A stretch of 64,000 bases of DNA from Patescibacteria group bacterium (GCA_038063875.1 JBBTUH010000028.1:17046-81045); one strand, 5' to 3'. Shown: positions 10,760-57,765, counted from the first letter of the stretch. The notes: a model not told the origin generated them from the sequence alone. Numbers and translations: made by a program.

Positions 10760-10801
10760 ACTCTTCTGGTCGCCACGCTTTGTATTTCGTATGATAGTCT
10801 C

Positions 10802-14667: not shown

Positions 14668-14684
14668 CAAAATAAGTATATATT

Positions 14685-47100: not shown

Positions 47101-50100
47101 GTATGTGTGCTTCAAGTGCTGTGTGAATCGTGTTAAATGATAATTTTGCTTGTTCCATAGCTGCCGCACGTTGTTCTAATTCTTGTAGTTTTTGTGGCGC
47201 TATCACGGTCGCTACATTCGGTCGATAAATGGTGGCAGTCGACAAATTAATTACATTTCTGTTTCGTTGTATAAATGCTTGTTCTGTACTCCCATTTCGT
47301 ATCGATAACCCTTGTGGAAATAACAATACTGCACTATTTGATGGATCATACTTTAGAGTCGAACTATCAGCTCCGCGTGAAAAGAATACGTCAGTAGAGT
47401 TTGCTCTAAAAGCATATGCAAAATCTGCCGGATTATCGATCCGTAAATTATAGGTATTTCCATCTGATGCAACATAACGAACCACATCCCCTGTTTTTAA
47501 CCCATCTGTTATGTTTACAATGCTGAGCGCTTGATATCCTGTTCCTGTCACAGACTCATTTTTCATTGCAGATGCCCGCGCAAGTACCGCTATATTTAAG
47601 CTCTGTTCTGCTTTTACCAGTGCAGCAAGAAGTACGGCTGGGGCAGCAAGGGTGTTACTGGTTGGACTTACTATTGCACCCTGTGGGACAGGCTGATCTA
47701 TGGGTATTTTGGGCACTTGTGCCCGTGACGGGACAAATTTTACTAGATCTTGAGGCTTCAAAATTGTGGGTATAAATGCTTGTCGAAATGCTTGCCAATT
47801 TTTGGCGATAAACTGTCCAAAGACTAGGGCTCTACTTGGTTGTGTCGCATTTGTAGCTTGCTGTAGTCGTGTTTGCTGATATGCAAGTACTTTTTGTAAC
47901 GGTGCCTCTTCAAGGCTGGCGATCAGTGGCGCCGTGATAGCCTGACTCATCTCTTCTACAAGCGCTTTTTTGTGCTCTACATCTCTCACTTTATCTAAAG
48001 CACCATCAGAAAACGTTACTATTTGCCCTATGTTCGCCTCCATCGCGATACGCAAATCAGATTGTGCATTTTGCAATGCTTTATTCTTAAATATCACACC
48101 GGAAGCAAGCAATATTTGATCTAGTGCTTTGATAAGCGTTTCTTTCTCTCCTTTTGTTTGATCTAAAATAGTCGCCTTGGCTTGATCACTCTGCGCATTC
48201 GTACCCATGAGCCCAACTTGACGCGACACTGCATTTTCATACGTAACCATGGCTGCCGCTGCGATATTGAGCCCTGCTACAGATAATTGATTAATATTTT
48301 GTATACCAGATTTTGTCAGTGAGGATTTTATGCGCTTGATTGCGTCCGCTTTCAGCGCATCTGTGATTTGCGCATCTGTACTATTTGCTATGGGTGCAAG
48401 AATGGTCTCAATTTGAGCTATTTGTGTATTCAATTGTTCTAATTCAGGTGAATCTGGCAGAGCTAAAGATTTCTGAACTATAAACGTCTGCTGTCGCACG
48501 ACTAGCCTCGATCGCTCTTGTTGGGCAAGGGAGAGTATGTGTCGTTCTTCTGGGGTTATAGATTTGCCTGAGATTGCTTTCTCCATCACCGTTTTCGCTT
48601 GACCTATCGCATCTACAGCGACTTTTGTAGACTCCACACTTCGTGCCGCAGCTGCTCGTTCTAGCTGCGCAATTTGCTCACGCGTGGATGTTTGTGGTGT
48701 TTGCCGACCCTCACGGCCTATGGTAGCTGCGATATCTGACTCAAATATCGCTTTGTTTATAAGTGCTGTTCTATCTGTAATGCGTGTCGCTCCCTGCAAA
48801 CTTGGCCGCACAGTGGACTCCGTGGGTGATCCAGCTTGAAGCGCTATTGGGACATCTTCATAGTTATAAATATTTTTTAGATAATACTCACGCACTTGTA
48901 TAGGTAATTTTGTAAATTCGGGGGTCGAGCGAATGCTGTTTATAAAATCGCGGGTCCGTGTAGCTGCTTTTTGAATAGCGACTGTACCTACTTGGGACGA
49001 TTCCGTAAGTGCATCGTTTACTCCTCCCACCTTGTCAAACTGCAACTTTAATCCATCAGAAAGAGACATTTCTCTTCCTTCATAATTCATCGTAAAGTCT
49101 TCCCCACCATATTGCTTCACCATTTTAGCCAATGAATCAATCGTATTTTTGACCATGTCAGAGTACCCATGGATCAAACTATTCGTAATTGAAATTTGTG
49201 TGCTGGCTGTTTCATTGGCAAGAAGTCGACTCCCTGCCTCCTCCAAAGCAATTGGTGTTAAACCATCTGCGGCTTGTCCATCAAGAAGATACACAGTGGT
49301 TTTTTCAGGTATTTCTCGAAACCTTCCAATACCTTGTGCGGCTGATGTTTGTGTGAGCGTTTTCGAGCTTCCAAAAAGATACGATGCGTCAGAGGGTGTG
49401 AATACACCTTGAATATCGGTCCCTCTTCCAGACCCTTGATCAAAAATCATGACAAACTTCTTGCCTGCTCTATTTTTATACGCGTATTCTTCTTCAAATC
49501 GCTGTATTGCCGTTTTTTCATTGTCCCCAATAATAGTTCTTTTTATTTTTCCATCCTGATCATAAAAAACTACTTTTTCATTTTCCGCAATATTTGTATC
49601 ATTATTTATTACGATCATTTCTACATCATCACCTAATGCGTTTGTCTTTTTTCGAAGACTTTGCAAGGTTATTTCTTTTGAATAATCTGGCATCTCGAGT
49701 ACAATTCGAGCGACACCCTCTGTACCTAATTCAATATTCGCATTGTCTACATCTTTTGCCCCAAACCATTCCGAATACTTAACGGGTTTTGTACTCTCTG
49801 AGCCAAAAATCTGAATAATAGATGTGAGTTTTTTTACTCCCGGAACGACAAGTTGCATATCAAGCGATAATTGAGCATCCAAAATAATGCTCTCTGGAGT
49901 ACCGGTAAATCCATACAGTCTATCTGCATAATGTCCCGTTCCAAGAGTCTGTTTCCATGATGAAGATTCTCCCTGAAGGGATACCGTGACCTGATCGATA
50001 AAGGCATTCGCTTGATCATGGGTAAAAGGCTTATTGCGCAATGAATTTTTTATCATTTGGCCAACAGTATCAAGTGCTAGTGCTTCATAGAGCGCTTGTG

Positions 50101-53100
50101 GCCGAGTATTTTGAAGCCTCCCTGTCCCGTCGCCGTACACCAATATGCCTTTCGGATCGAATCCATATCCACTTGTTGATCTACTTGATTGCTCCACAAT
50201 AGCATTTACTACTCCCGCTCTATCACTAAATTCTCCTTTAAATTCGCTTGAAGCTTCGTTTCCTTGATGATATTTTTCAAGTGCGGCTATCACCTCTCGT
50301 GAATTTGTCCGAGGATTTCCTGCCTCGTCATGGGTAATAGCATTCTTCTGCAAAAATTCTTCTACTGTTTGTGTGTCTCCTTGCGCCCTCGTCTTTTCAA
50401 ATGCTTGCCTTGCTGCTTCTAGGACTAAATCTTTGTACAATCCTTTTGCCAAATCTGTATCTGCAAGGGAGACGCTTTGTCCTTTTTGTACAAAAAGATC
50501 CTCTCCTATAGATCCTCCATTTTTCACGGTGCTCGCCTTTTCTATGAAATTTTTCGCTAAATCAGAATTAAATACGTCTCGATATTTTTGCGTTCGTATG
50601 GGATCATAGTCAGCTGCCAATCGTGAATCACCGCCGGAAGAAAACTGCATGCTATTTGCGATCACATCAAACTCGTCGATAAGAAGCATGGCTCCTTTTG
50701 TCCCCTCTCGAAACCCTTGCGTGAGAAGATCAGCATTTCTAGAGGCATGAAACTCATAAGGGGTCTCCAGCGTCGGGCTGTAAATGATGTCTGCATCGGA
50801 AAGTATTTGTTTGGCAAGTACATCATTTTGCCCATTGGTGATCTTATGAATACCTTCCGCATCGGCATAAATAATTTCTCTTCCCGAAGGATTGTAATAC
50901 ACTGCCTTTACACCGTTTTTATGGTGTACTAAAGGACTGTAGTCTTTCATCATACCCAAAACATCAGCCCACGAAGTAGCAAGAACGTTTACTTTCGCAC
51001 CGGTGAGCTTTACTTTTGCATCAGCAATTGCATTAAGAAGAAATGCAGATTTTCCTAAACCCGTCTGCCCGTTAAACAAAACACCTTTGACTGAACCAGA
51101 TATTTCCGTATCAAACAATGCTTTAATAAAAATTTCTGACTGATCTACTCGGGTCAAATGATCAGGCCCAATCATTTCGGAAATTCTTTCCTCTGTGGCT
51201 GTCGATAAATTTTCTTCTATTTTCTTTAAAAAGCTCGATGCTTCTTCAAGCATTTGTCTCGCTGCTTCTGTAGGCGGCCTACCGACGCCTGATTCTTTTG
51301 CCTGATTATCAATCAACTCTAGCTGTTTCTGCGCATTTCGCTCAATATGAAACCCTTCATTCTTCATCACATCTGCAACAACTGATAACTTACCAAGCGT
51401 GTTTGCTATCGCAACTTGCTTTTCAATCGATATTTCCTTCGGTCCAAACCACTTATATCTAAGGCTTGATGTATACGTCTTATCTTTTGCGTTTGCGATT
51501 GCCAACGCCTCATCGGCTTTCACCGTCAGTTCTTTTATCGCTTTATCAAAGGACTCAATATCTTTTGTTTGTTCAGTGGTTGGAGCTCCTCCTGCCTTTT
51601 CTACCAATGCACGTCTATTGGCAACAGCATCAGTCACCAAAGTAAGTGCGTCTGTATACTCAAGTCGCGCAGTATATACTGCCTCACGAACAGATTTCCC
51701 TGTTATAGCATCACTTATTGCTTCTCGAATCGGCTTCGTCGCCAAATCAAATCTTCCTCGCAACGAGCCTGCCTTAGCCAGCTCTGCCTGTTTTGCTATA
51801 ACCTCTCCACGTATCTTTGCACTGTTTTGTGACAATGATTGCATTTCTTGTGATTTATTATTTGCTGCAGCTACAGATCGCTCAGCTATACCTTTTGCAA
51901 ATATTCCATCCGCTTCAAGTTTGTTGAGCGATTCAAGCGCTTCCTTCGTGCGCGCGAGCATGCGTTCCGTTTCTTTAATTACTGATTCTGGCTGATTTGC
52001 ACGCGCTTTTAATTCTGCCAAATAGTCACTTGTTGCTTTGAGTGTTTTTTCATATGTTTCTTTCACCTTTGGCAACTGCGATGGATCCTTAATCACTTCA
52101 TTTTCTATAAGAATTTGGGTTTGTTTGGCTTCCACGTCGACAAGTCCATCCTTTCCTTCTTTGCCATACTGCAATTCTCGAATAGCTTGTGAGATCGTTC
52201 GCTCAATCGGTGTTTTCCGCGCTTCTATGGCAAGAGCTTTTGTAAGTTCTGTCGCTTGCAGTGCCGCAAGATATTTAGAAGACGTATTGCCCTCGGTACT
52301 TGCTATAGCTGAAAGTTCTTTGGCAGCGAGTCTATATGCCGCGAGTTCTTTCGTTTCTCTACCCGTCAATCTATCAAGAAGCGACCGATCAGGAGCACTC
52401 AGCGCTACTTTTTCCGCATTGTAACTCTGCTCTGCTGCTCGCACTGCCAATCGTGCTGATTCAACTTTTTGTATTGCCAACACTTGCTCAACCGGCACGA
52501 GCAACCCTGCTTGATTTTCAGTTTCACCCGTAGAAATAGTTCTCTTTACTACACCATCCGCATCTACAAATCGTTTTAAGACCTCCAAACTTTCCAAAAG
52601 GTTTTTGCCCACGACGGTTTGTTTGGCACTCGAATCATTCGCAAGCTGTTTTGAGAGCTCGAGCAGTTGATACGTCTCCCGCGCGACCGCATTTGTCGTA
52701 ATTCCGAGCCTGTTATTCACTTCAGACTGCATGCTCAATCTCGTCGCGTCTGTTATTTCAATTCCACCTATTGTTAATTTCTGGCCATTTTTCCAATTAA
52801 CAAGCGCTACCTTGTCCGCTATCGCTTGTGCCTGCTCAATATAGGGATTTTCTATAGTAGTAGGTTTACCAACGGCTTGTGTCTGTGCCAACTGCCCCTT
52901 AGAAAGCCCCGCCATCATGATAGTCGTTGCACATTGCTCAAACGGTACGCTTCCCGCAGCCGCTGCCGCACACGCGACTGCAGCTTGCCCGGTGTTTGTG
53001 TATAAATCCAAGCGTCCGATCGCTGTATTTGTCGTTTGCGAAATTATTGGTGACCCTTTTGGAACAAGGCTTGCAAGCCCTGTCACCGCTCGAGCACCCA

Positions 53101-56100
53101 TAACGGTTGCCATGCTAATGGAAAGCGCACAGTCGACCGTCAAGCGTCCTGCTTTACCACATGTGTCTGCTGCATTTAACGTAAATACTGTTGTTCCGAG
53201 TGCGTCACGGCCAATATGTGCAGCAGTGCTTTCGATAGGACTATATACATTCCGTATCAAACCACGTACGACATCGTCAGAAGAAGCGATAATCGCCTGT
53301 GCTGACAACCCTTCAGCATCTGCAAATGTTCTGAGTTTTAACACTGCATCATCAGCAGGAGCTATACGCGCGAGTATTTTTGCACCGCGTGAAGTTTTTG
53401 CCACAGCATCAGTCACAATACCGACGCCTGCTCCCGTTTCTACTGCTGCAGTACGAGCTAACGCGTTGACAGCTTTTAACCCAGAAAGTGATGACCATCC
53501 TGCAAACGCAGTCATACCAATAGATCTTCCACATGCCCAACCGTCCATACCTTGATACCATGTACACGCTTCTGTCGTGTCTTGCAGGCTTGTTCCCGTC
53601 ATATAAATTCCCATTGCATTTCCTGCAATTGATAAACCAGCTGTAGATACAATTCCTGTGCTAATTGCGCGAACAAGCTGAGCTCCGGGAAGAGCTATGG
53701 ATAAAAGTGTAGCTGTGGGTTTAGCAGCCTGCATGGTGTAACCACGAACTTGATCCCAAATTTCTTGGCCGCAATTTGAATTTTCTTTTACCTCATTCCC
53801 GCTGCATACTGCAAAAACATGCGCATTCTCTTTCAGTAGCTGGCCCTTGAGAAATCCACCATTTTCAAATTTGTTAAGAGCCAAGGCAGCGCTAACTAAT
53901 GGGCTATTCTTTTTTAAATCAGAAAGTGCTGCAGATGCCGCTACTGCGTCGTAGGTTCCATCCAACACTTTCTCAAACGTAATATCGACCCCTCCTGATC
54001 CCATAAGAAACTGGAGCTCTTGATCCCGAAGAAGTGCCGCCATCTGTATTTTTTGCTGCTCTATCGGTAACGTAGACGTAGTTTTGTTGTTCTCAAGATA
54101 AGAAGAAGCAATGATATCCGCCTGCTGATCTAAAAGAATCGACTTTTTTGCATCTATAGCTTCTGTGTATGCACGATTACGATAGTTTGCAGACGCACCA
54201 AACTGTCCTGTCACAGACGCTAACTCTGATTTGTATTTCTCTTGCCAAAGCGCCATTTCCTGTGCATACGTGTCTATATTTACGCCGCTTAGCGCTGCTC
54301 GTTCAAGCCACTTGGGATCAAAGGCTGCAAACCCATCTTTATTTTCTATGACATATCCGTACCCAGCGCTCATCCGGTCGGTCTCTGTATAGGCAGCAGC
54401 CACATTGTGCACCATATACTCGTATACATCGTCTTTTTTAGGATCAAGCGCGGCCGTTTTTTTCCACGTTTCAAACGCTTCCTTTTTTTCAGGATCTATA
54501 GCTAACTGCACCTTGTATTCAGAGAGCGCTATTGTAGCGTCGCTATACCGTATGTCTGCAGCTCGCAGTGCTGCGGCATCAAGATCCACTTGCGTTCGGA
54601 ATCTCTGGCTCAAAAAGGTATCGGGGTTTGCAAAGAAAACTGAACTAATCTTTACTCCTGCATCGATATTTTTATATTCCTCAATTGGTTTTATTTCTCC
54701 ATTCTTAATTTTTTCTATAAGCGCCGTCTCGCTATCCGTATCATTTGCCCGTACATATCCTGCAGCTTCAAATTTAGGTTTATGATTCAGATAAAATGAT
54801 AATTCTGATACCAGAGGGTCTTCTGCTGGAAGATCCGAAAAAATGCCTTTTGCCTTATTGTCTGCCACAAATTTGGTCACACTCCACCGATCAGCAGACC
54901 ACGCTTGCGTGCTTCGAACAAACGTGCTAAAAAAGTCATTTCCCTCTCGAAGCACTGGTTTGACTCCATCATCAGGTTTACCACTTCCAAACCAACCACC
55001 GGTAAGTACAACATCATTTTTTATGACAGGGTGCAACCGCTCTAGTTCTGCAATTGGATCCAATTGCCCTTTCGCAATCTTATTTAAATTCGTTTCAAGA
55101 TTGCCGGCGTTCTCCCATTCAACACGCAGCAAACCTATAGCCTTCTGTACCTCTGCGTCATACGTTTCACGAGAGGTGTCTTTTCCTTTATTTTTTGAGT
55201 CATTCTTCCAGTCTTCATATGAGACGTTCTGTGAACTACGCTCATTTAACGCCGTAACAAACGCTTGATCTTCTTTTGATAAAACTGCGAACACCTTTGC
55301 TGGGCGAAGATTTCTATCAGTGATTGTTCCCGCGAGTGCTGCCACTGCCGCCTCTGTAGTAGTAAATCGCGTTGTTGTAGAAATTTTCCCATCTTTTTTT
55401 GCCTGATTAAACGCATTCAGAATAGCTGCCTCATCTTTACTACCCATAAGTAATAGTTGTGATAACTGCAAATCATAAAGCCTGCTATTCACCGCACCAA
55501 GTTGGGTCGGCGCATTCTTTTTTGTAAAGTCTACAATCGTTTTGGTGACAAATTCAGGCTCACCACACTTATTCTTGTCCATTGTTGCAGTGACAAGCAT
55601 GCCGCAGAGAAGTCCCTCTACGCCAGGAGAGTCTTTATCAAGCATTGCAAGAAATATATCTGCACGCTGTGTCGCCACTTTTGCTGCTTCTGCAGCACCC
55701 AATAGTGGCGTAAGCTTCTTTTCAACTATATCTTGCGCAGTCTTAGTAGTACATTTCGGATCACCGTTACATAATCTTGTATTACTTTCATACAACGCGG
55801 TATATTTTCGCTGCTGTTGATATCCTTGATCAAGAATTTTTGCGATTTCTGCTTTTTGCTCCTCAGTCGTGGAAGAGGAGGCACTAACCTGCGCTCGTAC
55901 TTGCGCTTGAAGTGTTGACAACTCTTTTGACACATTTTGACAAGGATTTTCTGCTACTCCTCCTCTTCCTTTTATTGTTGATGGCTCTATTAAAGCCAAA
56001 CATTGCCCCATTTCTGCGTTTTTCAATACATATTCATACGTCAACTTCCCCAAAACAACCTCTTTATAATGAATTTCCCGTTTTTCTGCTGTATCCAAGC

Positions 56101-57325
56101 CAAGAGCGGTGAGCTTCTCATCAGCTTTTGCTTTCGCAAGATCCAATTTGGTTTTAATATCAACACAACTTTTTCGACGATCTTCATCCTCCATACAGTC
56201 GTTATACAAATCCTGCAGTGAAAGATACGAATCCGTTGCGGTTACACTTTGTTTATTCAGAAATTTGTTTTGCTGGAGCTTAGTATCTTCTTCTTTGGTA
56301 AAGCCAAAATTGGCTTCCAATACTTTTTTCGCATCGCTGACATCTTTAGAAATATCCTCGCAACCAATTGCTGACCGATTTTTTTCTAAACAACCATTGA
56401 GCGTATCAACCAGTGCCAAATACTCATCTATTTTTTTATTCTTCTCAATAGTTTCTAGCACCGTTGCTTTCCACGTTTTCCCCACACCGCTACCGAGTAA
56501 ATCTCCTTGACCATCTTTAAGATCTTTTATTGCTTCTTGATGACAAACTGAATCAGTTTTCCCACCACTCATACACGCAAGGTATGTATTTTGCTGCGCA
56601 TTATAGAGGACAAGCTCATCCTGATACATTTTGGTATCTTTTGAATCAATTGGAACTATTGTAAGCGGACAACCTGGACACGCCTGCCATGTGCCAACTC
56701 CCCCTTTGTTAACACATTGTCGACGTACCGTCCCCGACACTGGATCTTTTGCACCACCTATAGCTACGTTTCCTTCTGAAATTGTATTTTTCCCATCTGC
56801 TCCAGGACAAAATATGACTGCTGGTTTTGGTGTAGGAGCCACTGTACTTACTGTCGGAAGCGGGACTATCGTTGTGGCCACCGTAGGCAACGGATCACTA
56901 TCTAACGTCGGAGCTTTCGTTGGAAGTCCTATCGCAGCATCTCCTCCCTGACAATATGCAAGGTATATGCCAGACAGCCCTGCACAAGGATCATCTGGAT
57001 TTTCTTCCCCTTTTTCAATGATTATTGGTTTCGCTGGTTTCAGCGATGCACCAATACCAGTGGATCCATTATCGTTTATGACGCGCGCGAAATTCCGTAG
57101 ATCTGCTATGCCTCTGATTTGCAACTGTCGTGCAGTAATAAAAATACCACTGGCAACGAATGTAAAAATGATAATCCCAAGTATTGGCGCAAACCCCTGC
57201 TGTCTCTTATTATAATATTGAAGATAACAATCTATAAAGAAATAGATCAATCGTGGATATTTTGAAGCTGTTTGTGATTTTTTTTGTTCATATATTTTTT
57301 GTGATAAAAATTCTTGTATTTTCAA
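17126..57325 (-). CDS. Giant multidomain megaprotein (13,399 aa) with N-terminal signal anchor, Cys-rich and coiled-coil regions, and embedded ATPase, phosphatase, kinase-like and peptidase-like modules
   Basis: A single uninterrupted 40,200-nt ORF. It has a TTG start with an AGAGGA Shine-Dalgarno 8 nt upstream. Diagnostic motifs were located directly in the DNA: Walker A 'GQTGLGKS' (~51.05 kb), 'LLIDEFD', 'GFTGTP', 'GSGRGTDI', 'QGIGRFRE', PP2C 'VDGMGGMG' (~44.68 kb), 'GGGAQANVV...VVVKVY...HGDLNTV...FLDQVG' (~27.4 kb), 'YGHNLML...FMLFDHG' (~39.85 kb) and 'HEKLH' (~20.74 kb). Confidence 0.8.
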   Translation of the reverse strand: MKIQEFLSQKIYEQKKSQTASKYPRLIYFFIDCYLQYYNKRQQGFAPILGIIIFTFVASGIFITARQLQIRGIADLRNFARVINDNGSTGIGASLKPAKPIIIEKGEENPDDPCAGLSGIYLAYCQGGDAAIGLPTKAPTLDSDPLPTVATTIVPLPTVSTVAPTPKPAVIFCPGADGKNTISEGNVAIGGAKDPVSGTVRRQCVNKGGVGTWQACPGCPLTIVPIDSKDTKMYQDELVLYNAQQNTYLACMSGGKTDSVCHQEAIKDLKDGQGDLLGSGVGKTWKATVLETIEKNKKIDEYLALVDTLNGCLEKNRSAIGCEDISKDVSDAKKVLEANFGFTKEEDTKLQQNKFLNKQSVTATDSYLSLQDLYNDCMEDEDRRKSCVDIKTKLDLAKAKADEKLTALGLDTAEKREIHYKEVVLGKLTYEYVLKNAEMGQCLALIEPSTIKGRGGVAENPCQNVSKELSTLQAQVRAQVSASSSTTEEQKAEIAKILDQGYQQQRKYTALYESNTRLCNGDPKCTTKTAQDIVEKKLTPLLGAAEAAKVATQRADIFLAMLDKDSPGVEGLLCGMLVTATMDKNKCGEPEFVTKTIVDFTKKNAPTQLGAVNSRLYDLQLSQLLLMGSKDEAAILNAFNQAKKDGKISTTTRFTTTEAAVAALAGTITDRNLRPAKVFAVLSKEDQAFVTALNERSSQNVSYEDWKNDSKNKGKDTSRETYDAEVQKAIGLLRVEWENAGNLETNLNKIAKGQLDPIAELERLHPVIKNDVVLTGGWFGSGKPDDGVKPVLREGNDFFSTFVRSTQAWSADRWSVTKFVADNKAKGIFSDLPAEDPLVSELSFYLNHKPKFEAAGYVRANDTDSETALIEKIKNGEIKPIEEYKNIDAGVKISSVFFANPDTFLSQRFRTQVDLDAAALRAADIRYSDATIALSEYKVQLAIDPEKKEAFETWKKTAALDPKKDDVYEYMVHNVAAAYTETDRMSAGYGYVIENKDGFAAFDPKWLERAALSGVNIDTYAQEMALWQEKYKSELASVTGQFGASANYRNRAYTEAIDAKKSILLDQQADIIASSYLENNKTTSTLPIEQQKIQMAALLRDQELQFLMGSGGVDITFEKVLDGTYDAVAASAALSDLKKNSPLVSAALALNKFENGGFLKGQLLKENAHVFAVCSGNEVKENSNCGQEIWDQVRGYTMQAAKPTATLLSIALPGAQLVRAISTGIVSTAGLSIAGNAMGIYMTGTSLQDTTEACTWYQGMDGWACGRSIGMTAFAGWSSLSGLKAVNALARTAAVETGAGVGIVTDAVAKTSRGAKILARIAPADDAVLKLRTFADAEGLSAQAIIASSDDVVRGLIRNVYSPIESTAAHIGRDALGTTVFTLNAADTCGKAGRLTVDCALSISMATVMGARAVTGLASLVPKGSPIISQTTNTAIGRLDLYTNTGQAAVACAAAAAGSVPFEQCATTIMMAGLSKGQLAQTQAVGKPTTIENPYIEQAQAIADKVALVNWKNGQKLTIGGIEITDATRLSMQSEVNNRLGITTNAVARETYQLLELSKQLANDSSAKQTVVGKNLLESLEVLKRFVDADGVVKRTISTGETENQAGLLVPVEQVLAIQKVESARLAVRAAEQSYNAEKVALSAPDRSLLDRLTGRETKELAAYRLAAKELSAIASTEGNTSSKYLAALQATELTKALAIEARKTPIERTISQAIRELQYGKEGKDGLVDVEAKQTQILIENEVIKDPSQLPKVKETYEKTLKATSDYLAELKARANQPESVIKETERMLARTKEALESLNKLEADGIFAKGIAERSVAAANNKSQEMQSLSQNSAKIRGEVIAKQAELAKAGSLRGRFDLATKPIREAISDAITGKSVREAVYTARLEYTDALTLVTDAVANRRALVEKAGGAPTTEQTKDIESFDKAIKELTVKADEALAIANAKDKTYTSSLRYKWFGPKEISIEKQVAIANTLGKLSVVADVMKNEGFHIERNAQKQLELIDNQAKESGVGRPPTEAARQMLEEASSFLKKIEENLSTATEERISEMIGPDHLTRVDQSEIFIKALFDTEISGSVKGVLFNGQTGLGKSAFLLNAIADAKVKLTGAKVNVLATSWADVLGMMKDYSPLVHHKNGVKAVYYNPSGREIIYADAEGIHKITNGQNDVLAKQILSDADIIYSPTLETPYEFHASRNADLLTQGFREGTKGAMLLIDEFDVIANSMQFSSGGDSRLAADYDPIRTQKYRDVFNSDLAKNFIEKASTVKNGGSIGEDLFVQKGQSVSLADTDLAKGLYKDLVLEAARQAFEKTRAQGDTQTVEEFLQKNAITHDEAGNPRTNSREVIAALEKYHQGNEASSEFKGEFSDRAGVVNAIVEQSSRSTSGYGFDPKGILVYGDGTGRLQNTRPQALYEALALDTVGQMIKNSLRNKPFTHDQANAFIDQVTVSLQGESSSWKQTLGTGHYADRLYGFTGTPESIILDAQLSLDMQLVVPGVKKLTSIIQIFGSESTKPVKYSEWFGAKDVDNANIELGTEGVARIVLEMPDYSKEITLQSLRKKTNALGDDVEMIVINNDTNIAENEKVVFYDQDGKIKRTIIGDNEKTAIQRFEEEYAYKNRAGKKFVMIFDQGSGRGTDIQGVFTPSDASYLFGSSKTLTQTSAAQGIGRFREIPEKTTVYLLDGQAADGLTPIALEEAGSRLLANETASTQISITNSLIHGYSDMVKNTIDSLAKMVKQYGGEDFTMNYEGREMSLSDGLKLQFDKVGGVNDALTESSQVGTVAIQKAATRTRDFINSIRSTPEFTKLPIQVREYYLKNIYNYEDVPIALQAGSPTESTVRPSLQGATRITDRTALINKAIFESDIAATIGREGRQTPQTSTREQIAQLERAAAARSVESTKVAVDAIGQAKTVMEKAISGKSITPEERHILSLAQQERSRLVVRQQTFIVQKSLALPDSPELEQLNTQIAQIETILAPIANSTDAQITDALKADAIKRIKSSLTKSGIQNINQLSVAGLNIAAAAMVTYENAVSRQVGLMGTNAQSDQAKATILDQTKGEKETLIKALDQILLASGVIFKNKALQNAQSDLRIAMEANIGQIVTFSDGALDKVRDVEHKKALVEEMSQAITAPLIASLEEAPLQKVLAYQQTRLQQATNATQPSRALVFGQFIAKNWQAFRQAFIPTILKPQDLVKFVPSRAQVPKIPIDQPVPQGAIVSPTSNTLAAPAVLLAALVKAEQSLNIAVLARASAMKNESVTGTGYQALSIVNITDGLKTGDVVRYVASDGNTYNLRIDNPADFAYAFRANSTDVFFSRGADSSTLKYDPSNSAVLLFPQGLSIRNGSTEQAFIQRNRNVINLSTATIYRPNVATVIAPQKLQELEQRAAAMEQAKLSFNTIHTALEAHIQQQLTQALGITNPTPDVTAALGLAAANITVTLLEQMESGVISNAYDQTTTGSVQKLLIAIANLSDPNQTITNVIGSILADARNVTPEQIAQVITGQVAQSQPQIPASLTLSQRWDMVKHWLISPNPFAVFNRSLPLSERAGQLAVWTTLRVAVPFGIGLVNPLAAGYYVTATWGWDIARFVTWPVRAPVVALANALMRTPLARDFILGERIITVLSDTNPSIWRGLWKSVLMRPTVINILAGSREGFWEHYYNARFLALGDTNTSLGNRFWQTVTSVTRFFTAPHMLGMRMVQSAVMRANSTPTVPYRSPLSDLPITEPNEWSLDGYLYSFIPRSILNATPRNNTVVWALTRVGLFLTPFPLSTISHSLWAYDVHRFLSDGYKTPNFLNASQGRLRFLYWDLHWPESPLKYFARVRSYKLADHVTSSIVAQQVAPIPVAPVTVPVTSVDLAIYELMGVISGNQTVYFGLTVSGEIVFANNQTGITTQYAHVNLKNVNDIESLNLVIDADGVVDAQDNPVVKSTSIDIPVDQTTYQFGNKKILFSRNTDGSYTVYKEKIIAPVVQTAPVSGYKYIAGATNISMQANNPVEVDAKVEVTYTADGVTTTTRATVKSNENESGGLSDGGLLYWIVKLDGGDQYLKVPVAGVSIVYVTEPLAQQTQADGLVVLQNTIDDLKRKQVEYERLVVEANTRREELETYKKESLPQAIQKANEEVSNFTKELADITRVVDEQKRLLQGIGQQHIALRASIATLQSQIPAVAPSSDIGIAEDKGTKYLKNANPMEDAALVVRNVTGITAFGSVMMVEVDGMGGMGSKGSGAVAAQIIKNRVAEIYFNEISIPSNGRIDIQSRLYETFDRLNQEIRNADLAGGGAVVDITILEEVNGKQIAHVIHTGDAETWVVRNGTAFLLMKDHSIVGELLEMGEVTVKEAGEHPMSNVVYGALQGNNENLSHVVRESFEVQEGDVLISVSDGVIDPLRWHNKIYNNRNFANKTGVPGGFFVDVTKGKTNGKEIAQEIVSQVRALADAKVKKAGGKVDNISAGVIVVGKSFGKFQENTVELTQKQTELDNSLQLARKVQAQLQVLQARQAVVVTRLSNAQQNASNLESNTLDTQITQVETSLAINTTSLEETKVKLQQAESELGLAKTVVERQQEIGDILQKLIAQGFNVTNFVLLQEYLLDQVKLGQAFSALISNIIEHTQADVVLLEQLQTTFLSALPPAGFVRMTIEASDVFTRIALVLEDARSKVTDDRVAIDPTTSSTTITPATVNVVVDESALQAEAEKQEATLVEKFNALLKDQKDRLPGSIAAARAELATYIAQAITTGKSLTTQSKEAATRVAINVAARIAEKVAQQASVTSVGNAVNLKPAPVIEEISIIKSLLLQFPIELLRAERSYVEGTLGKEKVAFLVQLLSSSLEKAGVQFVPKATTLDGIFTALSDQSFLVSIDAIINRDTAIKIQGQLEFALDGLKTVNADVEKEKQSFGARVKERVEVFQEAIEIPLEEQPDKVAKLLPLLLELQETGLAISDTKPTTVDGVIAAVTGGITNYGGTAPATRASADVILPIIGQMEDVIDANFFFTNELEALKRADSVLQSGVVPVALLSAGDEFVEQEVENLGINVTTEFQDLSSALTETARANPKACDDCLKLKDQFIDLFTNIAKALSQGRHEDAKGDLETILAMVEADREKHAEKKDGNEMLFSTAAYFANQKLAQIMRILNKPDEAKRYSKASNDDRLKLANELVKASKKPVENKEVIDAVGSFINTMYLSDFDAIMKMKIADDPQTELEALVDVLKQTETLSTNPVLAVLERLGAKVVNTLSGYTIPTLREIYDDKIIEAQKYVDGLENKQAVPLDKEVAFVEQDKVEAIRDALNKEFDSNKETNGIRVSLQKTSRGVGLVMDGSSSLLDKIEIVFLKPDPFVSDALNHTLIPVLLGQSGLSVIPVISKLDATDPGKGFGPKVLAIIEKVVIEQKFGGLGVLENETPLSLKFWVGQKYILADTKDNEDELINASKANTMFKVFDTSKLPADTDGLKKIKSIEADIIAWLSLAKEVGLYSDIGKSNQPPISQEQLHKKVQEKSNQYIAGKLTPDSLKPEFQAPLIKAIELAFKGVVIPVATYDAVINALNQSEVQKPLTDLKAAIDKNTDGALEYLTGFVQALLLGDISQGSVIGLINDMTKIWVDPQSVLAGHEAPTTEVEFMLSYTVVVQKYLKLASFKLQSANLTLITERVMKALYSHYKATQLSINTIDLSIDSDNKIYEYIQSGKIVSTILDDTWVIRALPNAEDNSRIVYELTNRSNLERFIVKPVGDYLGLAEYRRLPEDAVQSRLVNPVSYVSPSHLFYIAPLVVGVEFGAIYEALPPAELAPLYINFIEKLSKNHMYIDDVELIYGHNLMLVKKDDGTYTFMLFDHGSYKYRPKLSVDEIRRYTVGYFSLLFTVILDRPQFDLYLPYDYKSKQLSSVAMARMMTVYEFLRLYQDKYNETIEVTPALFNKEPINSSEVPFLVPSTQQEYVDLLLQAVIWREEAIQKGSIRIKQTTDEVPLTKEDFIELFESIKNGLQKIRAFTLEDWQLYIRIGEEKPFIYKDPDGEIIALLAAKNAPKKSILDIQADVVRTAWFTEDGKEFTAFGTLKKLFSIDTVFASWVRSIESGDTNAPGRTQKKLTDFASTFVDTLLVRGRKSITDLDKIDAQAEKAVKTISEKLRALIKNNGDLPMSEAKLIEFFDLFAADKKFTKLEQYITFLLIGDENSNADLAVRLSTAAQVAANVRSSLRTTLIDPMLQTIYQVQQDVNAVSVSATEADSTTALLLRTITNYNAVAPKDLQYRETDRVILDSITDRINAFVLFLRKYNVWSEGESIPVSAKIEVQKILDQFANIVGLTSATEKQIVARVLATLTAGDLTNVPSDSAEIIRALTQNATWNEDHVSPHLVQAIDNNLVEELLKVYARTIISITVNTDQIPTVLTQEQLALKALEKSSSEWVREGVSEADFLKTHRTEIENTLTKFSPNFKSITTDSYNQIVADIAQYLLMRKSGDAPGGGASSPFALITEYLGNFSQAIWLTGNELRVGGRLDVIQDALIPVVVPSSVVTGFPRIRQFTAYVNTRKKLQDLRVARRLREVAQQSVAREADRLTREQAQVAQKKRIAIDALVTDIGEQQKVEEAERIRQIDANILLTTVQSVILKDEYVKNAIVGGYSEQVVQTTIQGVLDKNNVTDEIFALLNLKKSDWISGTTQTLNKTYANDIKKAQTQRRDSEDQVYKDMASWSRSVAAVFKALDEVDSSITTPQLVGRSLLTGVTPVVGPVVELTLPFSSGVSRSIQTGSQIRQLTALMQLGTLKNIFVTNSALHKLIVFGGSEEQLQARIDAMLVDKRRNISATLFVDAKRDYPEWRQEVIEKARQTYATERLAQMEKEDEALQQKVDAFFATQDASEQLRVSKVDAQEQARLQKIVDEEKKLRAAEKRSVHREELRQQIAERRAQISPLVQGLQSLAARISFFPLSNTSRVATRTLKNALNTAGLTVTRETPLSLLEELDVLLKDKALDRIKTVEKIEAISEAFLAFETVLQLQLDRQVGKLLRSVTAKIGQSEERLFDQASVSDQARLDISAITTSLDAEKQLALQLEQLRAEQDRRAVLEIAAVKQAAELAPSIEKRAAEVRKANQSISNPQVLLLTAVAGEALTPALVPPIALWNMFGEVQKVMDEASFMMDLGEPALTAYGLGLFYVDKPITVPLTESQIKAAELLKLRQKQLAREESTAFIAKLESEESKAAWRTAHRQLLITGLLESLPVIQDALRVRTADFLLFATHRDGPVVQAYLNGAKKSEISLLLRQRLKEEGITSDDILLARGMSDKEFINEMYKSIETWLGDVKDQPQAARAVIPQRTGEIMESVLGPEKGIALALQYEMYLNDREAVRVQLQADIKQSFAERDIAENAAFNHGFEQISGVAEAQQYLSFVLGEVVAQLTNKKEERTQAKLFIAHVFTNNLTEIQKRVMATVIIGDSVSTMKSKIEKIVRTVLEEDQRLESDEQASSFIPAYARLVTERAMEELTQWDAQVADVYRQNLVEEALYRNDRVSFNLIKRKLRDDGWFDGISLLPSVFLQNRAQNILNIDKKAIDGVVDAYRRWYSEQTEFIVDTLIEKETLDTQGLETLLHARLGDWFTEQSEVERASAIRGLARRLNETQNSLIAQKQKEDARQKWYEELVKTSGVLLTDITLLRDASELLLFDKPGSFQIAGIARVALRSIIRSRIDEAVRSVIDSSMTSKQRENSINKQVEITLGRLETISVFVPFIKQFDTRDTSPLVYFIQTANLTDILAAAERFEQVLLLGADQYIILHERLTQAISGYSDDEALAEFVEAELVSETIFPEVARQVNGASVSLSYELDMIVARALIANARLEVAKVEKQTLVGEISVLLRQLKKSSPDIRLQVNGKPLEVEYSRLISVFESVDGPEAITDNIKIDIERARFYLDVAPKIQVTSEERRNIIITTGEKETRLAKPGFFASLGKWGPTRVVRDGVVGLVHAWVKPFSFEYSGTKQAANLGIMALRDGWMWIRGGPIGILPWIAHDGLRLVEQIIPSDSLKAIVRTSRDFVLFPNWWDASVPTNFRFVQGFIHIFTRGILFVTGNPLFVPVIVHDISRFALYQIERVEERAVATAVSLDTAQVGSRAVRFNLDTVKKQTTNLVITFPDNTDVVTMNLTKDPYKKTWLQWVGDGLKWTAGVTIGVLSIAYGLLSVVIWLNVAFSPTPQLPIREPAAIIQQIQTNPETASPSETSAPVDTATAQLPTETATTTQQDQYEESIQQDWIDSQSAKNPLVAFMSKGIYRWAVNQRVLLANLEGESFWLRIVGVANPTDEQKKAVFENPIVSFLILGMDSHLNSIGDEDPNIPITSTKNDQNIIVFLNTQTGEFSFIALSRKFFMADGSQINDAMGKLLPKDPAGITFQQNILFPIVSDGNQNDPMVNARLRFEWLTGRPIDSVTAFGFNGFRDAINALYPNGITITSIATITDALDDKLATRTIFESGVEYTMDGATLLDYVRLRHGEGFLGDSTGGRTVRLAQVIGEISKDLAKRVENDNGFESLLVELQHILAIIQQGKSFETDTPWVGSNGELDQGLLFDLIRRDQIARDFAGEQHKTLTDYFLYYLVQNLHAITLIPQESSLGIIKLPFLSAYNILLGPGYLPTWNNKESFGEWTYKQLDVDAVRNYYKPFQDIITNEIYKEDAQAAFKVQPIPAQSNLMSGQVKKSINTWKAKAAIIARHNADYQKELTFKREGVTSFDERRYDAEFDEYFKGPDARRSLVREAIMYWWKALWQLDTSLKQSVQYLFSQNFSPEVKRISNTAQNVEQPVVTAPAKVQPIPTQQSITQAIRQVRQRIDPRFALQAVRAGKALHRAYDPIVIPAQQVVRNVTSSIQNRACGSAMLIEKVYAQDGGGLSNPCAFSNVIGVTEEAVAFGMEPPIISILDNVHQLYDRFIATWSQFRVLILGVESITPQTDTYTSDDIISSLAEQFRLDDQRVRAIAEEANIDVSKIHPIVLLAQLPRLILEQEPSRMSQASGNKTMLSTLLYLHSTELSSNDRTIVIDELLRKMKFEIGLVNSENTFQQEKVVGTLLRTIISIRNTKIIREEIRRIIGTSLFADNQDVLVHLGLEQMVFSALIKDDQSLMHNYSDDEFRQRLTQLDTDALRLIQELKKGADAHGAIRFDAPTINTVLVDLLSKGIKLLRLTDTSIGQSMTEFFYDHPIFENIYIPFQSWNIHFVPISVKQNHDYDALTMGLGLVDMDSFVSRLRSLSAFSRPRKLVGSTNLVMAAFAVNNLGFTLDDRWDVNTPNGVVSGKDALQYIVANQDQFPQISLVHISISTRELFRTWSQDRIQRLIARAKKNERANRLTAIMAQTVGVDEELIRSNTRITIDEKQSLVNEKPAQPAAEYVMDKIRAWMPAPETILQSSFLKWSTPFFARFSLNTAQSRIAIDEQTRVEDENDRTPLPTPLISQLRPTKDDEYLISHALLTEGYLNTEIPQKGVSINDYAAFGIQSGVAMVSDGVSVLRGEFINSQKGAIRLFNNIIDFFKSDKIGQIRKATWVWTQENLERFRQVLNGELASSERVLAEELGQFPTTGVIAKLLPNNKIMMIRIGDAEARILRNGKIYHMGQLYDAQGVPLFKGSILQPLLEAGDAVQAYDSVETSAPKVFGYGKLSVEQIHISIYQLQPGDRIMLSSDWVSKVSQSKIPDRFNSVDDVIEEVLQRSQNPKQAAEKLSTLGYSNGVPIDDLGTQFIFFQQQLPVENPKKKELVAGSGSTSDIKLPANQFPDEAFRLRTENGLLYIKTSSAFQYKLNAEHLKKDEWTPLTEGAILDLGTLYPTIKVGKDRQINLSFNVDVPLGIYVPQSYFDLPGVRTDVSTANSTSSQPESFWKKITGSAALLLPRQLGSATGADPTVLSNILTVIGNLLNQYVAPWFVPYVAPLLTNISSISSLPTQIRAALQPGTWRYAREEIKLIPDRIQLVLKIGLQAFGAPHYTLFGDGSLVFVTKDRIGGGAQANVVIGYRKAPQSKAFERVVVKVYHDTSLLNDPPPDFRERRRIDVSTDELFRASLNGQEMAIQPISSRVKPAFYGWVKDANNINQMAVMEYIQGKSLLQAINDTESLTDKIILYKKLQSALETLYLDTQLPHGDLNTVVASQPKYVNALVTPEGEIVFLDQVGIARYIFDEEYFASHGIPSSIDPKDLPRLFHELEKQLLAQDIQQIEYLAVGSIDLKTIRSEKASRLEELQKYINNDDIQNEVYQSMERGAMVLLVSSYDSTPALVIIMDEKIKNVRIVLADGQDESALTGDVYVKQSLQALATYFSDWEIIAPTGVSMYIQSQKLMQAEAPTHRSPFSENDSFRKQQGEVVAATIVQAFLTFSDRSPTDPFAKVFKTLLLGDPAVLTLFTEHFFDPLHQKSLPPLTRDMFDKKSLAQLSDPDEWLAAMNISGQMPQMTYRSSVWLLLEALGWRVLRVDDVQELFNANKSAKNVWDQHTVGDHLLKKIMWLFDKARDKIKDGSRQYAYLRVTGDKYAIIVRDIHAVKNASNPLTQAFDVLLSDQKMLYVKDRIVSQSIGLHTSFEEKLSLEDLSRIDRQKFMLAAKNQKPYTGEQIQNYRKTHPRLNAILDSIDTLDTNDEGFKTFLTQVVATLMVDDLLEDTANDVQSALQKENPDETLRVFPDVVRVIETVRTTKGYGNAVRMLRVGFAGVLKHVNTDFEKTLGDVAGDELIKKQFRPVVEHVTREFLRKTGVTAQIVFHPSANDFIIMLPQGTLVDIEVLRTALGNALRDLSIGGVQYYSHPSLSITDVVFTDAGSTTEQEAANIVIIDNAFAVLAQASNQDALSSIDTHFFLNGLPRQDLPVHHWDWLRRYLSTNVVLEKRGPIRLAELGVTEKERLKLVSIEPENKFEKDEDVLAATAWQKLIGGFVHRYGEKDLPVWERAVEAMKKWWGDQQVLHIIDPNLARLFNLTTTFDTGNAAVSEEILKTVFSTGIGTNTRMSSEYVSPKTTALLQQAGYDAQTLDKVYKSSGNERLAIQKSILEKLPDSEWVTVYYTIGNSDERVIPGYFGRFGDTTDATKVRLYASSKEAVNSTLHLRYSSPSLVNIIGIRLPKAMVVSENEALYLNNAYAATEPEVGRVVEERVAQNTRLNITPTRATNYVSWIPEELVVEIVSDINELIVSQFKRTIPFENPIRAENIALEIDKTTEQAKLIKDLAYYSPQLYVPTMSPRELLVLLEELQIKFTQKVLLGKDIYVYLSDPIKIPFQDRSFALGVVYTHGQPQYRMFYKSNSGESWRVIPSIEPLQSGDKTPSSFVNSSTRYILSKGIGEQDTVLPAEIQVALDEKIVSGSFVDLSGYISFSDGDKIAALFDSIIPRTQKVDPTYTAEFELPTNSTSGMESFWPFLATGRGYAVDTTTYLDTDMPDFAHGLRGSYEVVGGPLKHQKKNYIFTSINQNITYMFSYDEVSHYVQTILIEDTDSSINSYGVHSRPLQTFYAMLPAYEHRGPQASKDAVEIGDREYVDQYKWISQFPLNRAFSTWLKTQGTPVVTYEDLITSAVDNSGCGSSGFLHIPSVFAADSGCAILSVGMEVQEVEAELTRVIPKEGGYYWYEGMKAPTTKYDSKTPIKAPFGKQVTLYKDQKKTQALFTFIASTEFKGSSVIQQNAPAIDTGNAANILAVPAKEVNSIQKVRLQPLWQRAWGAVRKWWGGPEITHVENEVLLKKLKYPGKVIDLPEYSSGSGPKSAIIYNSPKDENVVVYRGINDATLVFDQTSNIIRYDPQNPLLIEAVNNFVNNPSPERFNLMRVSTINPELLKNLDLLESSINKYLSSGNPYGDLGLTYKDAVIVTNVFSNSGEVTPTNLSPYVSASTDITQASRYTGGEKTGGVLILSIHKERLEHVNNYEVALKLEVKPEEIVAYIPYNHDGDSPYINESLEKAAAYIKALSVEHATVDTIQVVQGKPWWQRAQVFVRTTVGKVKKWWGDQGIPHFAEPIQMQLWERMGELWQGVRKQWVGQQVRLAIRDEIPKSIKILIDRIQRVEESFIQIDESLQDQIMNELNVYENLSISDRKWIARHVVRDILALDTKQKDIWDSFQNAADLGDYIPVHEESAIAASDAFNREQAVVERDQFTTIPDFVSSQVQFNFPFGTVAEKKRVIGAIISKEVQKSGLPAQFVSTLASLMYQLLPGYQYAIDYPSDPVNDITIVRSLPVGARGSATGGGLIIAQSIIDDPVWAAVEMLHEKLHIFLIGNRTARVNHDESQELVVTTLQYLIADKVGLSTKKFEEIFYWKGAQGLIFILQTLKEAKLFDWDTEEGKLALYRMSANGDFSELIIPFAQLRGYDASQIIGYFHLTTDEVFGNWGKNIDQQNSILNGPFGLSESNSRFGFDQIRTRENATQNQISFEGALIKTRAFAGSIMRAIFGDVKTLNDKELQKKAQLEALQKECGGGDSVADTTKKSPRGDFGDSTRVESNLAYHPSATITQISYSSTPTPLFSISRVYAADFSQDGDVLGATSGCTAFGRVIKNFNLDRYPSALLWMQKTVRAGQQLRKVFPFIFPKNLNVVPSSSSLGVGEQSVVLKKLDRYLPQSITNDMFGRRMSDILTEDYPDFSTLLQADSARHGLAFFMDRTNIVRHAIDDGVFDTVDSRTMFHTIASIETGATPLERVVAYINPNIDLDWIWFVADRTNWFTADGIDNGSFLFGSERVKNIAGTMIRGEDDSNGPSLLTVPFSVVSPLAKVLFSQIDHVLEQSSNGEKFSDTEIYEFTLVASSIADFLHIKPDGNGRSSEDFMVALQRRLFRGDMSKVKTWSTNSIRTSLSESEVKLLSDEAKYYYVNSFDAQLRRINGGLSHFRRQILRDIQKEIDSEALLDDSILSQNPESVMKVVQRIIVSMDIGQQQNNDDFSAMLQTYGFDELTQSLQLLRAGSYDFTYLSYADTGLPVLNPDMSLEEAEVKAQKIREARVKNITSVVTADFIESLRPALEKELDGKPITIDDWVAAVEGTKEYQALLTNSPNVNAQQLLETLRPSLVIQIQTFFNGKKPQNLFTGPQGPRRFSITEENKLPELIVTNLKKNAKYENLLQNISQMKTPFWLLGGLGIVSTGASLYAYGPEIFHFLMQTPVMLQSVGASIVDPITLSEIITYLQQNDQVVARVITGVFLVSDLIHLPVDIVQSFLWRSITHATLFSETTIEQLQAKGYEIHRVSDISVLTLQGKKTVPVFEATTPQQKILRFVPVRRLWNTLDTEEAFALPFNLSVAPLTDAVTSPLTPVGHLMLRAATSKTVAFLIINSLAQMVGNAFGAQINPLVMAPAAITQSAVSNAISFVIQTPIRIGYLVYRVGKFLLGVVGGKMTGNSPAVTQVKEAGIELFNAVRNIFQKNRNNLEENDEIKLPQPEVYRWSQQLVTIESSVTKTHAVIRDMNKGKSRFKNNVLTGLQNHYI

Positions 57326-57430
57326 AAAATAAATCCTCTTACTATTACTATGATTCGTATATAGCTACCCTGTCAAGCTGAAAATTTTGGTTCTTGACAA
57401 CCACTCCCCATTTTCGTCTACACTAAAGTC

Positions 57431-57637: not shown

Positions 57638-57678
57638 CCAAACCCCTGTCGTTTCGTAGATTTCAGTTTCTTATTAAG

Positions 57679-57749: not shown

Positions 57750-57765
57750 ATTTGTTTTTCTCTTG

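Follow-up and report, generated by a model that had tools for sequence, protein, structure and literature searches.

The 64,000-nucleotide stretch of DNA analysed here (the window; GCA_038063875.1 JBBTUH010000028.1:17046-81045), from a Patescibacteria group bacterium, carries on its minus strand a single open reading frame (ORF) of 13,399 amino acids (aa; 17126..57325, TTG start), and raises the question of how a protein headed by what looks like an exported stalk can carry ATP-dependent enzymes further along its chain. In the initial annotation, the segment 55916-57325 (-) was read as a signal-anchor followed by a Pro/Thr-rich (PT) linker and a Cys-rich module, from which it was argued either that the catalytic part of an extracytoplasmic megaprotein acts inside another cell or that the topology is inverted. 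Our analysis supports with high confidence an N-in Sec signal-anchor followed by an exported PT/Cys stalk, and favours, at somewhat better than even strength, an overall picture in which this stapled stalk heads a multi-pass giant envelope protein; the multi-pass arrangement of the protein beyond the stalk is, taken by itself, an even call. All coordinates given below for parts of the giant protein are on the minus strand.

The coordinates of the annotated segment are those of the true N-terminus of the giant ORF, of which it encodes aa 1-470. A chance ORF or an assembly artefact was rejected on the basis of the length of 13,399 codons and the recurrence of the call in independent assemblies, i.e. 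an identical 13,399-aa protein with the same start codon in the Hainich groundwater assemblies ERZ1292621/24/25 (0.1 + 0.2 µm fractions). An alternative TTG start at codon 26 was discarded, since 52% identity to the nearest relative at species level (locus L008) extends over residues 3-125, and conservation thus reaches upstream of that codon. The composition of the ORF is ordinary except for its cysteines, and self-BLAST gives no internal repeats at 1e-5. The host is a Microgenomates-type bacterium within the Candidate Phyla Radiation (CPR) from groundwater.

No description of this giant-protein family in Patescibacteria was found in the literature searched. A word-indexed search of 5.8 billion proteins with aa 1-1600 and aa 1951-2700 as queries returned near-identical fragments only, to which a profile (A1) added nothing, and when aa 1-1200 were run exhaustively with HMMER against 1.84 billion representatives, 12 matches came back, all fragments or members of the same family. 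The family was found with an alignment (A2) of its best-conserved signature, an Ala/Gly-rich domain with four Cys pairs, which was scanned against one genome per GTDB species (11 loci) and 241 million metagenome records (three more loci). The 11 loci come from Candidatus Gottesmanbacteria, Woesebacteria, a Hainich metagenome-assembled genome (MAG) labelled 'Patescibacteria group', and MAGs titled 'uncultured Gammaproteobacteria'. The last title stands on L008, L009, L012, L015, L017 and L018, all GTDB representative MAGs in which the gene is present in synteny with Rho and M23/LysM genes, and looks like a placeholder or wrong taxonomy. Complete genes are available for two of the relatives, L015 (4,514 aa) and L018 (3,742 aa). 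On the H52 contig (L002) the call is 10,054 aa long instead of 13,399, and on a 364-kb contig (L007; ERZ1286166 contig_3783) both Rho and the giant gene are broken into many short ORFs, with a clean counterpart at L009; this fragmentation looks like frameshift errors of long-read assembly, and giant genes in assemblies of this kind would be missed by protein-level searches.

The relatives share an N-terminal plan that begins with a tail of 3-76 aa (usually with L(F/I)HFFIDCY), a transmembrane (TM) segment of the form GF..LPL.LL... and the motif RERTGELRQFA, and continues with variable PT linkers and Cys modules, W.QCPGCPLT.IP.DS.DTKKYQDE and helical Cx9C modules. A core corresponding to aa ~100-3830 is colinear across 11 relatives and runs in the order stalk, Ala/Gly-rich stapled domain, helical region, superfamily 2 (SF2)/SecA-like ATPase and Trp/Arg-rich domain, after which each protein ends in a variable tail.

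In the window protein, the N-tail (aa 1-44, 57194..57325) is net basic, as had been proposed, with 8 K/R vs 3 D/E; it carries the conserved L(I/F)(Y/H)FFIDCY motif and an unpaired cysteine, C33, and is probably cytoplasmic. The predicted TM helix, put at residues 45-66 in the initial annotation, is recovered at aa 45-65 (TM1; 57131..57193; FAPILGIIIFTFVASGIFITA), with a Kyte-Doolittle value of 2.42 over 19 residues and a summed Hessa-type dG of -0.5 kcal/mol, which places it among the two most hydrophobic 19-mers of the giant protein. A hydrophobic segment of ~20 residues is found near all 12 of the 12 family N-termini, and TM1, read as an uncleaved signal-anchor, is followed by a conserved juxtamembrane motif, R..G(I/E).(D/E)LR.FA. 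The PT-rich linker likewise stands, at aa 134-171 (56813..56926); it is the sole such window in 13,399 residues, none of 50 shuffles yields one, and in the relatives the linker is expanded and multiplied, with variable copy number.

The cysteines behind TM1 are distributed in a manner typical of exported proteins. Paired or otherwise excluded cysteines are a signature of exported bacterial proteins, for which a cysteine-exclusion and even-number bias has reportedly been described (work attributed to Daniels and colleagues in 2010 and Dutton and colleagues in 2008). Before TM1 there is only C33, the sole unpaired Cys of the window protein; after TM1, 34 Cys fall into 17 sequence-local pairs (gaps 3-72, median 11) that are separated from each other by up to 3,786 residues. 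Such pairing departs from random placement both in aa 67-1500 and in aa 1501 to the end (P < 5e-6 for either block, permutation), and in the latter block Cys amounts to 0.067% vs 0.55% in 17 neighbouring ORFs, an ~8-fold depletion (Poisson P 4e-19). The same trend extends to the family, in which 10 of 12 members have a tail with one unpaired Cys and 10 of 12 have an even number of Cys after the TM; the exceptions to the latter are a truncated fragment and L015, the extra Cys of which sits in a C-terminal domain behind a cluster of strong TMs.

The Cys-rich module that had been reported is therefore present, but its count of more than 15 Cys in residues ~110-470 is not: 14 are found there (15 with C33), and the Cys-bearing part extends past aa 470, with 18 Cys by aa 587, 26 by aa 1465 and 13 local pairs up to the latter residue. 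Nine of these pairs lie in modules at aa 114-587 (55565..56986), which include W.QCPGCPLT (216-220) and ~62-aa helical modules, recognised by eye only, with one Cx9C pair each; the pairs are kept in relatives at 25-50% identity. A single-sequence AlphaFold2 (AF2) model of aa 100-640 is mostly helical over aa ~260-640, at low confidence (predicted local distance difference test score, pLDDT, 41.6). The W.QCPGCPLT motif (aa 216-220, nt 56666-56680) is invariant across the family, and because its CPGC is like a thioredoxin-type CxxC active site, that part might be redox-active instead of a structural staple. The remaining four pairs of the stalk belong to the Ala/Gly-rich domain (aa ~1090-1480, 52886..54058; LNKFENG..LKGQ, MTG(S/T)SLQDT.E.C), in whose A2 alignment each pair is either kept throughout or absent as a unit in relatives that are 35-58% identical. 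Further along, a CDDC motif (aa 5054-5057, 42155..42166) holds the only Cys between aa 1466 and 8842, and a CxxC is also present in the variable C-terminal part of several relatives. Zn or Fe-S sites were rejected, as the pairs are single and ~10 residues apart with no clusters of four. We infer that the pairs form disulfides, and that the stalk is a wall-spanning, disulfide-stabilised structure.

This shared head, i.e. a tail with an unpaired Cys followed by a TM, by PT linkers and by paired Cys, is the basis for an N-in anchor with an exported stalk, as the initial annotation had proposed, and it also bears on the inverted arrangement given there as the alternative, in which TM1 would be N-out/C-in and the whole bulk, including the PT/Cys region, cytoplasmic. 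Inversion would offer every ATP-dependent domain a cytoplasmic milieu, and the flank charges of TM1 in the window protein are near balanced (N flank +1, C flank +2). Across the family, the charge of the N flank equals or exceeds that of the C flank in 9 of 12 members, and averaged over the members the 15 residues ahead of the TM carry more positive charge than the 15 behind it. Tails as long as 76 aa, among them that of P0007 with 13 K/R and not a single acidic residue, do not cross the membrane unless a signal directs them; the sole unpaired Cys is in the N-tail, the TM of relatives precedes strictly paired Cys that are conserved together, enlarged PT linkers and modules with four Cys, and an LCP-like domain and its anchor further downstream (see below) would be misplaced. 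The inverted topology is thus very improbable.

The difficulty with an exported stalk lies in what follows it. At aa ~2060-2760 (49046..51148), the motifs of an SF2 (SecA/DEAD/ResIII-like) ATPase occur in order: I, GQTGLGKS (2086-2093); II, LLIDEFD (2214-2220); III, YGFTGTP (2471-2477); V, GSGRGTDI (2631-2638); and VI, QGIGRFRE (2664-2671). They are kept across 10 family members at 18-51% identity. The ATPase named in the initial annotation thus has intact motifs and family-level support, while the region of the window protein alone gives no Pfam or PDB match even at E 10. The matches of the relatives are near or below cut-offs (ResIII in 5 of 10, 1.7e-4; DEAD in 2 of 10, 9e-6; SecA_DEAD in 1 of 10, 2e-4), and with family profiles the PDB yields no more than Era (E 0.08) and, as the best for the ATPase profile, the ASCC3 helicase (E 0.33). 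In an hhalign comparison with eight ATPases of E. coli as controls, the top score goes to SecA (42.6), by a narrow margin over UvrB (41.0) and RhlE (36.8), with SF1 helicases and Rho well behind. An insert of ~250 aa between motifs II and III occupies the place of the SecA PPXD, a likeness that is positional only, and the scaffold and wing of SecA were not detected in the giant protein. At the level of the family, these features point to a motif-intact, SecA-like SF2 enzyme with two RecA domains.

No hydrophobic segment separates this ATPase from the Cys-paired stalk: none of the 10 family members has a 19-mer that scores better than +6 kcal/mol from the final Cys pair of the stalk up to Walker A. 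A motif-intact ATPase under purifying selection therefore appears to be placed in an exported segment, which is the central paradox of the family. The conflict between enzymes and export seen in the initial annotation holds for the ATPase; the phosphatase and kinase-like regions described below need not be outside, since further membrane elements intervene and FHA domains and an unpaired Cys follow the TMs of the relatives. Three ways out may be envisaged for the ATPase: a motor that works in a partner cell, cytoplasmic work before its own export (i.e. in cis), or an unconventional crossing of the membrane by the Ala/Gly-rich domain.

In the last of these, the Ala/Gly-rich Cys-stapled domain (aa ~1200-1480) would span the producer membrane, e.g. 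as an oligomeric amphipathic bundle, and the SF2/SecA-like motor and everything up to a second TM segment (TM2) would be cytoplasmic. This is the only reading that gives both the ATPase and the PP2C phosphatase a normal ATP/metal milieu with the LCP-like domain outside, and the domain has the least polar segments between stalk and ATPase (19-mers of 4.4-5.1 kcal/mol) as well as being the most conserved part of the family. For giant proteins of another phylum, self-export motors have been proposed and TM predictions called unreliable (West-Roberts et al. 2023, bioRxiv 10.1101/2023.11.21.568195). The candidate helices, however, have E, Q, R or K at conserved positions in the relatives, their scores greatly exceed the thresholds for insertion, and the four interleaved Cys pairs would all need to be on the same side. 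Three relatives (L010, L015 and P0006) have an additional Cys pair after the ATPase, and Cys depletion persists through the stretch that would be cytoplasmic. A crossing of this kind is accordingly decidedly improbable.

Downstream of the core, the best-defined enzyme is a PP2C (PPM) phosphatase at aa ~4185-4455 (43961..44773), a domain identity that is solid and agrees with the initial annotation. Residues 4193-4386 match PstP (1txo/2cm1) and Stp1 (2pk0) in the PDB at E ~3e-11, and NCBIfam Stp1_PP2C matches at E 1.2e-18 (67 bits, below the 230-bit equivalog cut-off); Pfam PP2C models give no match to the giant protein, with SpoIIE alone at E 0.0055. By inspection, the metal motifs are complete: MED (4191-4193), DGMGG (4216-4220), HTGDA (D4304), SDG (4379-4381) and DN (4446-4447). 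The proposed kinase domain is weakly supported. Over aa ~9955-10135 (26921..27463), five kinase-clan models from two libraries match the same stretch in register, all under curated cut-offs (PK_Tyr_Ser-Thr 0.0047, Bud32 0.0048, RIO1 0.021, PrkT 0.031 and ABC1 0.22), and a G-loop (IGGGAQANV), K9988, a hinge (MEYIQG), H10098-G-D10100 and a DFG-type D10126 can be read, with an atypical insert in the catalytic loop. Nothing in the PDB matches at E 10, and the single-sequence AF2 model (pLDDT 34) is unusable.

These enzymes belong to a part of the protein that varies between strains. Strain L001 is ~95% identical to the window protein (91-99% over the first 3,925 aa) and is without aa 3926-5248, so that both the PP2C cassette and CDDC are gone; at L001 14914-14949 this is a clean 1,323-aa deletion or replacement, with strong divergence afterwards. 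In the relatives, the variable part contains HopA1-effector-like domains (27 bits, above the Pfam cut-off; L010 aa ~4355-4449, L012, and L015 aa 4310-4400) and, after the TM cluster of L009, a PRTase-CE domain (aa ~4850-5045). Both domain types are otherwise known from effector or conflict systems.

In another reading, all of the chain after TM1 would be exported and the stalk would offer the SF2 motor, PP2C and kinase-like regions to a partner cell, working in or on that cell, with the Ala/Gly-rich domain, the Trp/Arg-rich domain and TM2 inserting in the partner membrane. This reading, the one preferred in the initial annotation, is rather unlikely, and it draws on much of the evidence set out above: there is no TM between stalk and ATPase in any of the 10 family members, in L010, L015 and P0006 the ATPase has Cys pairs on both sides, Cys are depleted and paired along the entire length, and the ATPase motifs are conserved at 18-20% identity, which argues for selection for activity. 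The strain-variable C-terminal cargo, with a PP2C cassette that is absent from a 95%-identical strain, recalls that of polymorphic toxins, the HopA1-like and PRTase-CE domains of the relatives fit the same pattern, and CPR bacteria are widely regarded as episymbionts. In its full form, an episymbiont would anchor the stapled stalk in its own membrane and carry a SecA-like motor and strain-variable enzymes into the partner cell, where the motor would burn partner ATP to pull the chain in and the TM/LCP cassette would insert in the partner membrane; this more specific scenario is improbable.

The region around TM2 speaks against delivery of this kind. TM2 (aa 8141-8167, core VTIGVLSIAYGLLSVVIWL; 32825..32905) is as strong as TM1 in hydrophobicity, with a Lys-rich N flank and an acidic Ser/Thr/Pro/Ala-rich linker on its C side. 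As shuffles of so long a protein often give a lone internal hydrophobic 19-mer, such a segment was rejected as TM evidence by itself; TM2 is accepted on the strength of its flanks and of the domain that follows. This is a LytR-CpsA-Psr (LCP)-like domain at aa ~8285-8495 (31841..32473), matched by PF03816 above its gathering score (29.9 bits vs 24.6, profile positions 58-147 of 150) and by TIGR00350 below its cut-off (24.5 bits, E 2.7e-5, vs 62.3). It is the only Pfam match to the whole giant protein, to which 1000-aa chunks at E <= 1 added faint SpoIIE and kinase hints. The LCP reference motifs are GxDxR, RSDT and SIPRD; by inspection they are partly kept, as GMDSH, KNDQ and ALSRK. LCP enzymes have their catalytic domain at the outer face of their own cell membrane, and TM2, linker and LCP-like domain together have the layout of a complete stand-alone LCP enzyme, from which the sidedness of this part would follow. 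No relatives of the TM2-LCP cassette were found in the metagenome scan.

For the delivery of the whole chain to a partner, it is thus a difficulty that TM2 is hydrophobic enough for stop-transfer in the SecYEG of the producer, that its flanks obey the positive-inside rule for the producer membrane, and that LCP enzymes work on the outside of their own cell's membrane. Moreover, the window shows neither an autoprocessing protease nor an immunity gene, nor any gene of a dedicated secretion system, and we know of no precedent for the delivery of ~10,000 aa into another cell. In the relatives, FHA domains (E 1e-19) and an unpaired Cys are located after the TM cluster, and these fit a cytoplasmic C-terminal part.

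The membrane elements of the relatives are centred on the last domain of the colinear core, a Trp/Arg/Pro-rich hydrophobic domain at aa ~3520-3830 (45836..46768; NILAGSR.G, LNATPRNN, LWAYD..R). It is conserved in nine relatives, some of which have TM-hairpin insertions inside it, and in most relatives one to three strong TMs follow directly, all of which suggests that the domain is membrane-associated. A hydrophobicity scan also reveals a C-terminal cluster of moderately hydrophobic segments at aa ~13049-13310 (17396..18181). In this cluster, the motif PIRIGYLVYRVGKF (aa 13288-13301, nt 17423-17464) resembles PLRIGWDVYRIGRVL in the Trp/Arg-rich domain of the relatives (21 aa, E 0.002-0.03), and may represent a portion of that domain in a second, degenerate version. 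The 'extracytoplasmic megaprotein' of the initial annotation, which implies a single membrane pass, is not supported in that form, as TM2, the Trp/Arg-rich domain and the C-terminal hydrophobic cluster had been missed.

The favoured reading, an exported stapled stalk at the head of a multi-pass giant envelope protein, would then run as follows. The basic N-tail with its FFIDCY motif would stay in the cytoplasm, and TM1 would act as an uncleaved Sec signal-anchor, N-in. From aa 67 to ~1470 the chain would be outside, as a juxtamembrane motif, a PT spacer and small modules that are each stapled by one local Cys pair. It would re-enter the membrane at the Trp/Arg-rich domain, so that PP2C is cytoplasmic, and cross again at TM2, leaving the LCP-like domain on the outer face behind its own anchor. 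The SF2 ATPase would work either outside the producer's cytoplasm or before its own export. Several points weigh against this arrangement. It would put a motif-intact SF2 ATPase outside, together with the kinase-like domain. The Trp/Arg-rich domain of the window protein has no segment that reaches the normal TM threshold, so the crossing that places PP2C inside is taken from the relatives. Between aa 1501 and 8141 there are 2 Cys vs ~36 expected, a depletion equally strong in the stretch supposed to be cytoplasmic, and this would be better accounted for if the entire protein were exported. The flank charges of TM1 in the window protein are not decisive, the TM calls come from simple hydrophobicity scales only, and disulfide formation is assumed.

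The closest described kind would be the giant proteins with SecA-like domains of Omnitrophota and some Actinobacteriota. Giant proteins of Omnitrophota and some Actinobacteriota ('Archaeovorins' and related) contain TM regions and a divergent SecA_DEAD without scaffold or wing; they sometimes have Ser/Thr phosphatases, implausible 'extracellular' placements of enzymes were met by the authors, and a role as a cis-acting export motor was suggested for those of Omnitrophota (West-Roberts et al. 2023, 10.1101/2023.11.21.568195). Like these giants, the present protein is a single very long ORF (40 kb) of an ultra-small bacterium, mostly without detectable domains and with TMs, and it has a fast-evolving SF2/SecA-like ATPase with no detected scaffold or wing and the same problem of cytoplasmic enzymes placed outside. 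As compared by description, it differs in phylum (Patescibacteria/Microgenomates) and in having ~2 strong TMs and not 'numerous' ones; HEAT, glycoside hydrolase, glycosyltransferase (GT), peptidase, NUDIX and dockerin domains were not found in its 13,399 aa at E <= 1, and the Cys-paired PT stalk and the Ala/Gly-rich stapled and Trp/Arg-rich domains are not described in the Omnitrophota giants.

The head of the protein shares with Gram-positive wall-spanning proteins an N-terminal export signal, a Pro/Thr spacer, and Cys that are excluded or strictly paired. In such proteins, and in secreted actinobacterial proteins with O-glycosylated Pro/Thr linkers, an export signal is followed by a Pro/Thr spacer that lifts domains through the wall; here, in contrast, the anchor is uncleaved with a conserved cytoplasmic tail, no LPXTG motif was found, and the stalk leads to ATPase, phosphatase and kinase-type domains with no adhesin repeats. 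Polymorphic or multi-effector toxins (MARTX, CdiA, Rhs) combine a conserved delivery part with variable C-terminal cassettes, to which the conserved N-terminal part and strain-variable enzymatic cassettes seen here correspond. Unlike in these toxins, the N-terminus anchors the giant protein in the producer's membrane, and no type 1, 5 or 6 secretion system (T1SS/T5SS/T6SS) signals, autoprocessing cysteine protease, immunity gene or repeats were found in the protein and its neighbours. The PstP/Stp1-like PP2C with full metal motifs, together with FHA in the relatives, recalls the PstP-PknB-FhaA/B modules, and an LCP-like domain behind a TM and linker recalls the stand-alone LCP proteins TagT/U; unlike in either, everything is fused in one giant chain, and the Arg motifs of the LCP-like domain are partly replaced. 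Between the kinase-like region and atypical kinases (Bud32/RIO) there is only a weak likeness.

The surroundings of the gene are compatible with a surface role. Upstream of the TTG start there are a Shine-Dalgarno-like AAGAGGA (57334-57340, -, 8 nt 5' of the start) and a promoter-like TTGACA-18-CATAGT (57347-57376, -), both consensus matches only; together with the recurrent start call and the conservation of residues 3-125, they make this start credible. Envelope genes around the giant gene include an M23/LysM peptidase, two YfhO-like genes, a GT87/NPCBM gene and DUF2298, accompanied by a sugar aminotransferase, an epimerase, an acetyltransferase and GT2. An envelope-glycan cluster flanks the giant gene at 105-15869 and 60662-62668, with DegT aminotransferase, GT2, GNAT, methyltransferase, dTDP-sugar epimerase-like, two YfhO-like, GT87-NPCBM fusion and DUF2298 members, and its products could glycosylate the PT spacer or build a polymer handled by the LCP-like domain. 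The giant gene is separated from the M23/LysM peptidase gene by two tRNA-Ala genes (GGC and CGC anticodons; 57678-57749 and 57765-57836, -), and the second tRNA gene touches the peptidase stop codon; at L001 a 273-aa gene takes their place. A small gene (57431-57637, +) runs divergently from the giant gene and is called in other Hainich assemblies too; its product is basic, 68 aa long, and contains a single TM-like segment (MRKKLHHKKSK...LLVMFALMLGLGAVVG). An AAA_14/DUF4143 ATPase gene (14685-15869, +), of a type often linked to mobile or defence contexts, is convergent on the 3' end of the giant gene.

Giant genes can occupy several percent of an ultra-small genome, and the function and in/out placement of their products is an acknowledged problem (West-Roberts et al. 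2023, 10.1101/2023.11.21.568195). The present family is small and non-repetitive, and its cysteines provide a built-in marker of sidedness, being unpaired in the terminal segments and strictly paired between them, so that the paradox of an ATPase in an exported segment becomes testable. Its resolution would show either the self-export of giant proteins or the delivery of enzymes by CPR bacteria to partner cells, and delivery to a partner, if true, would amount to a new contact-dependent device made from a single gene. To our knowledge, no host-interaction machinery has been described for Gottesmanbacteria and Woesebacteria, and the strain-variable cargo of these proteins offers a handle on host interaction in both.

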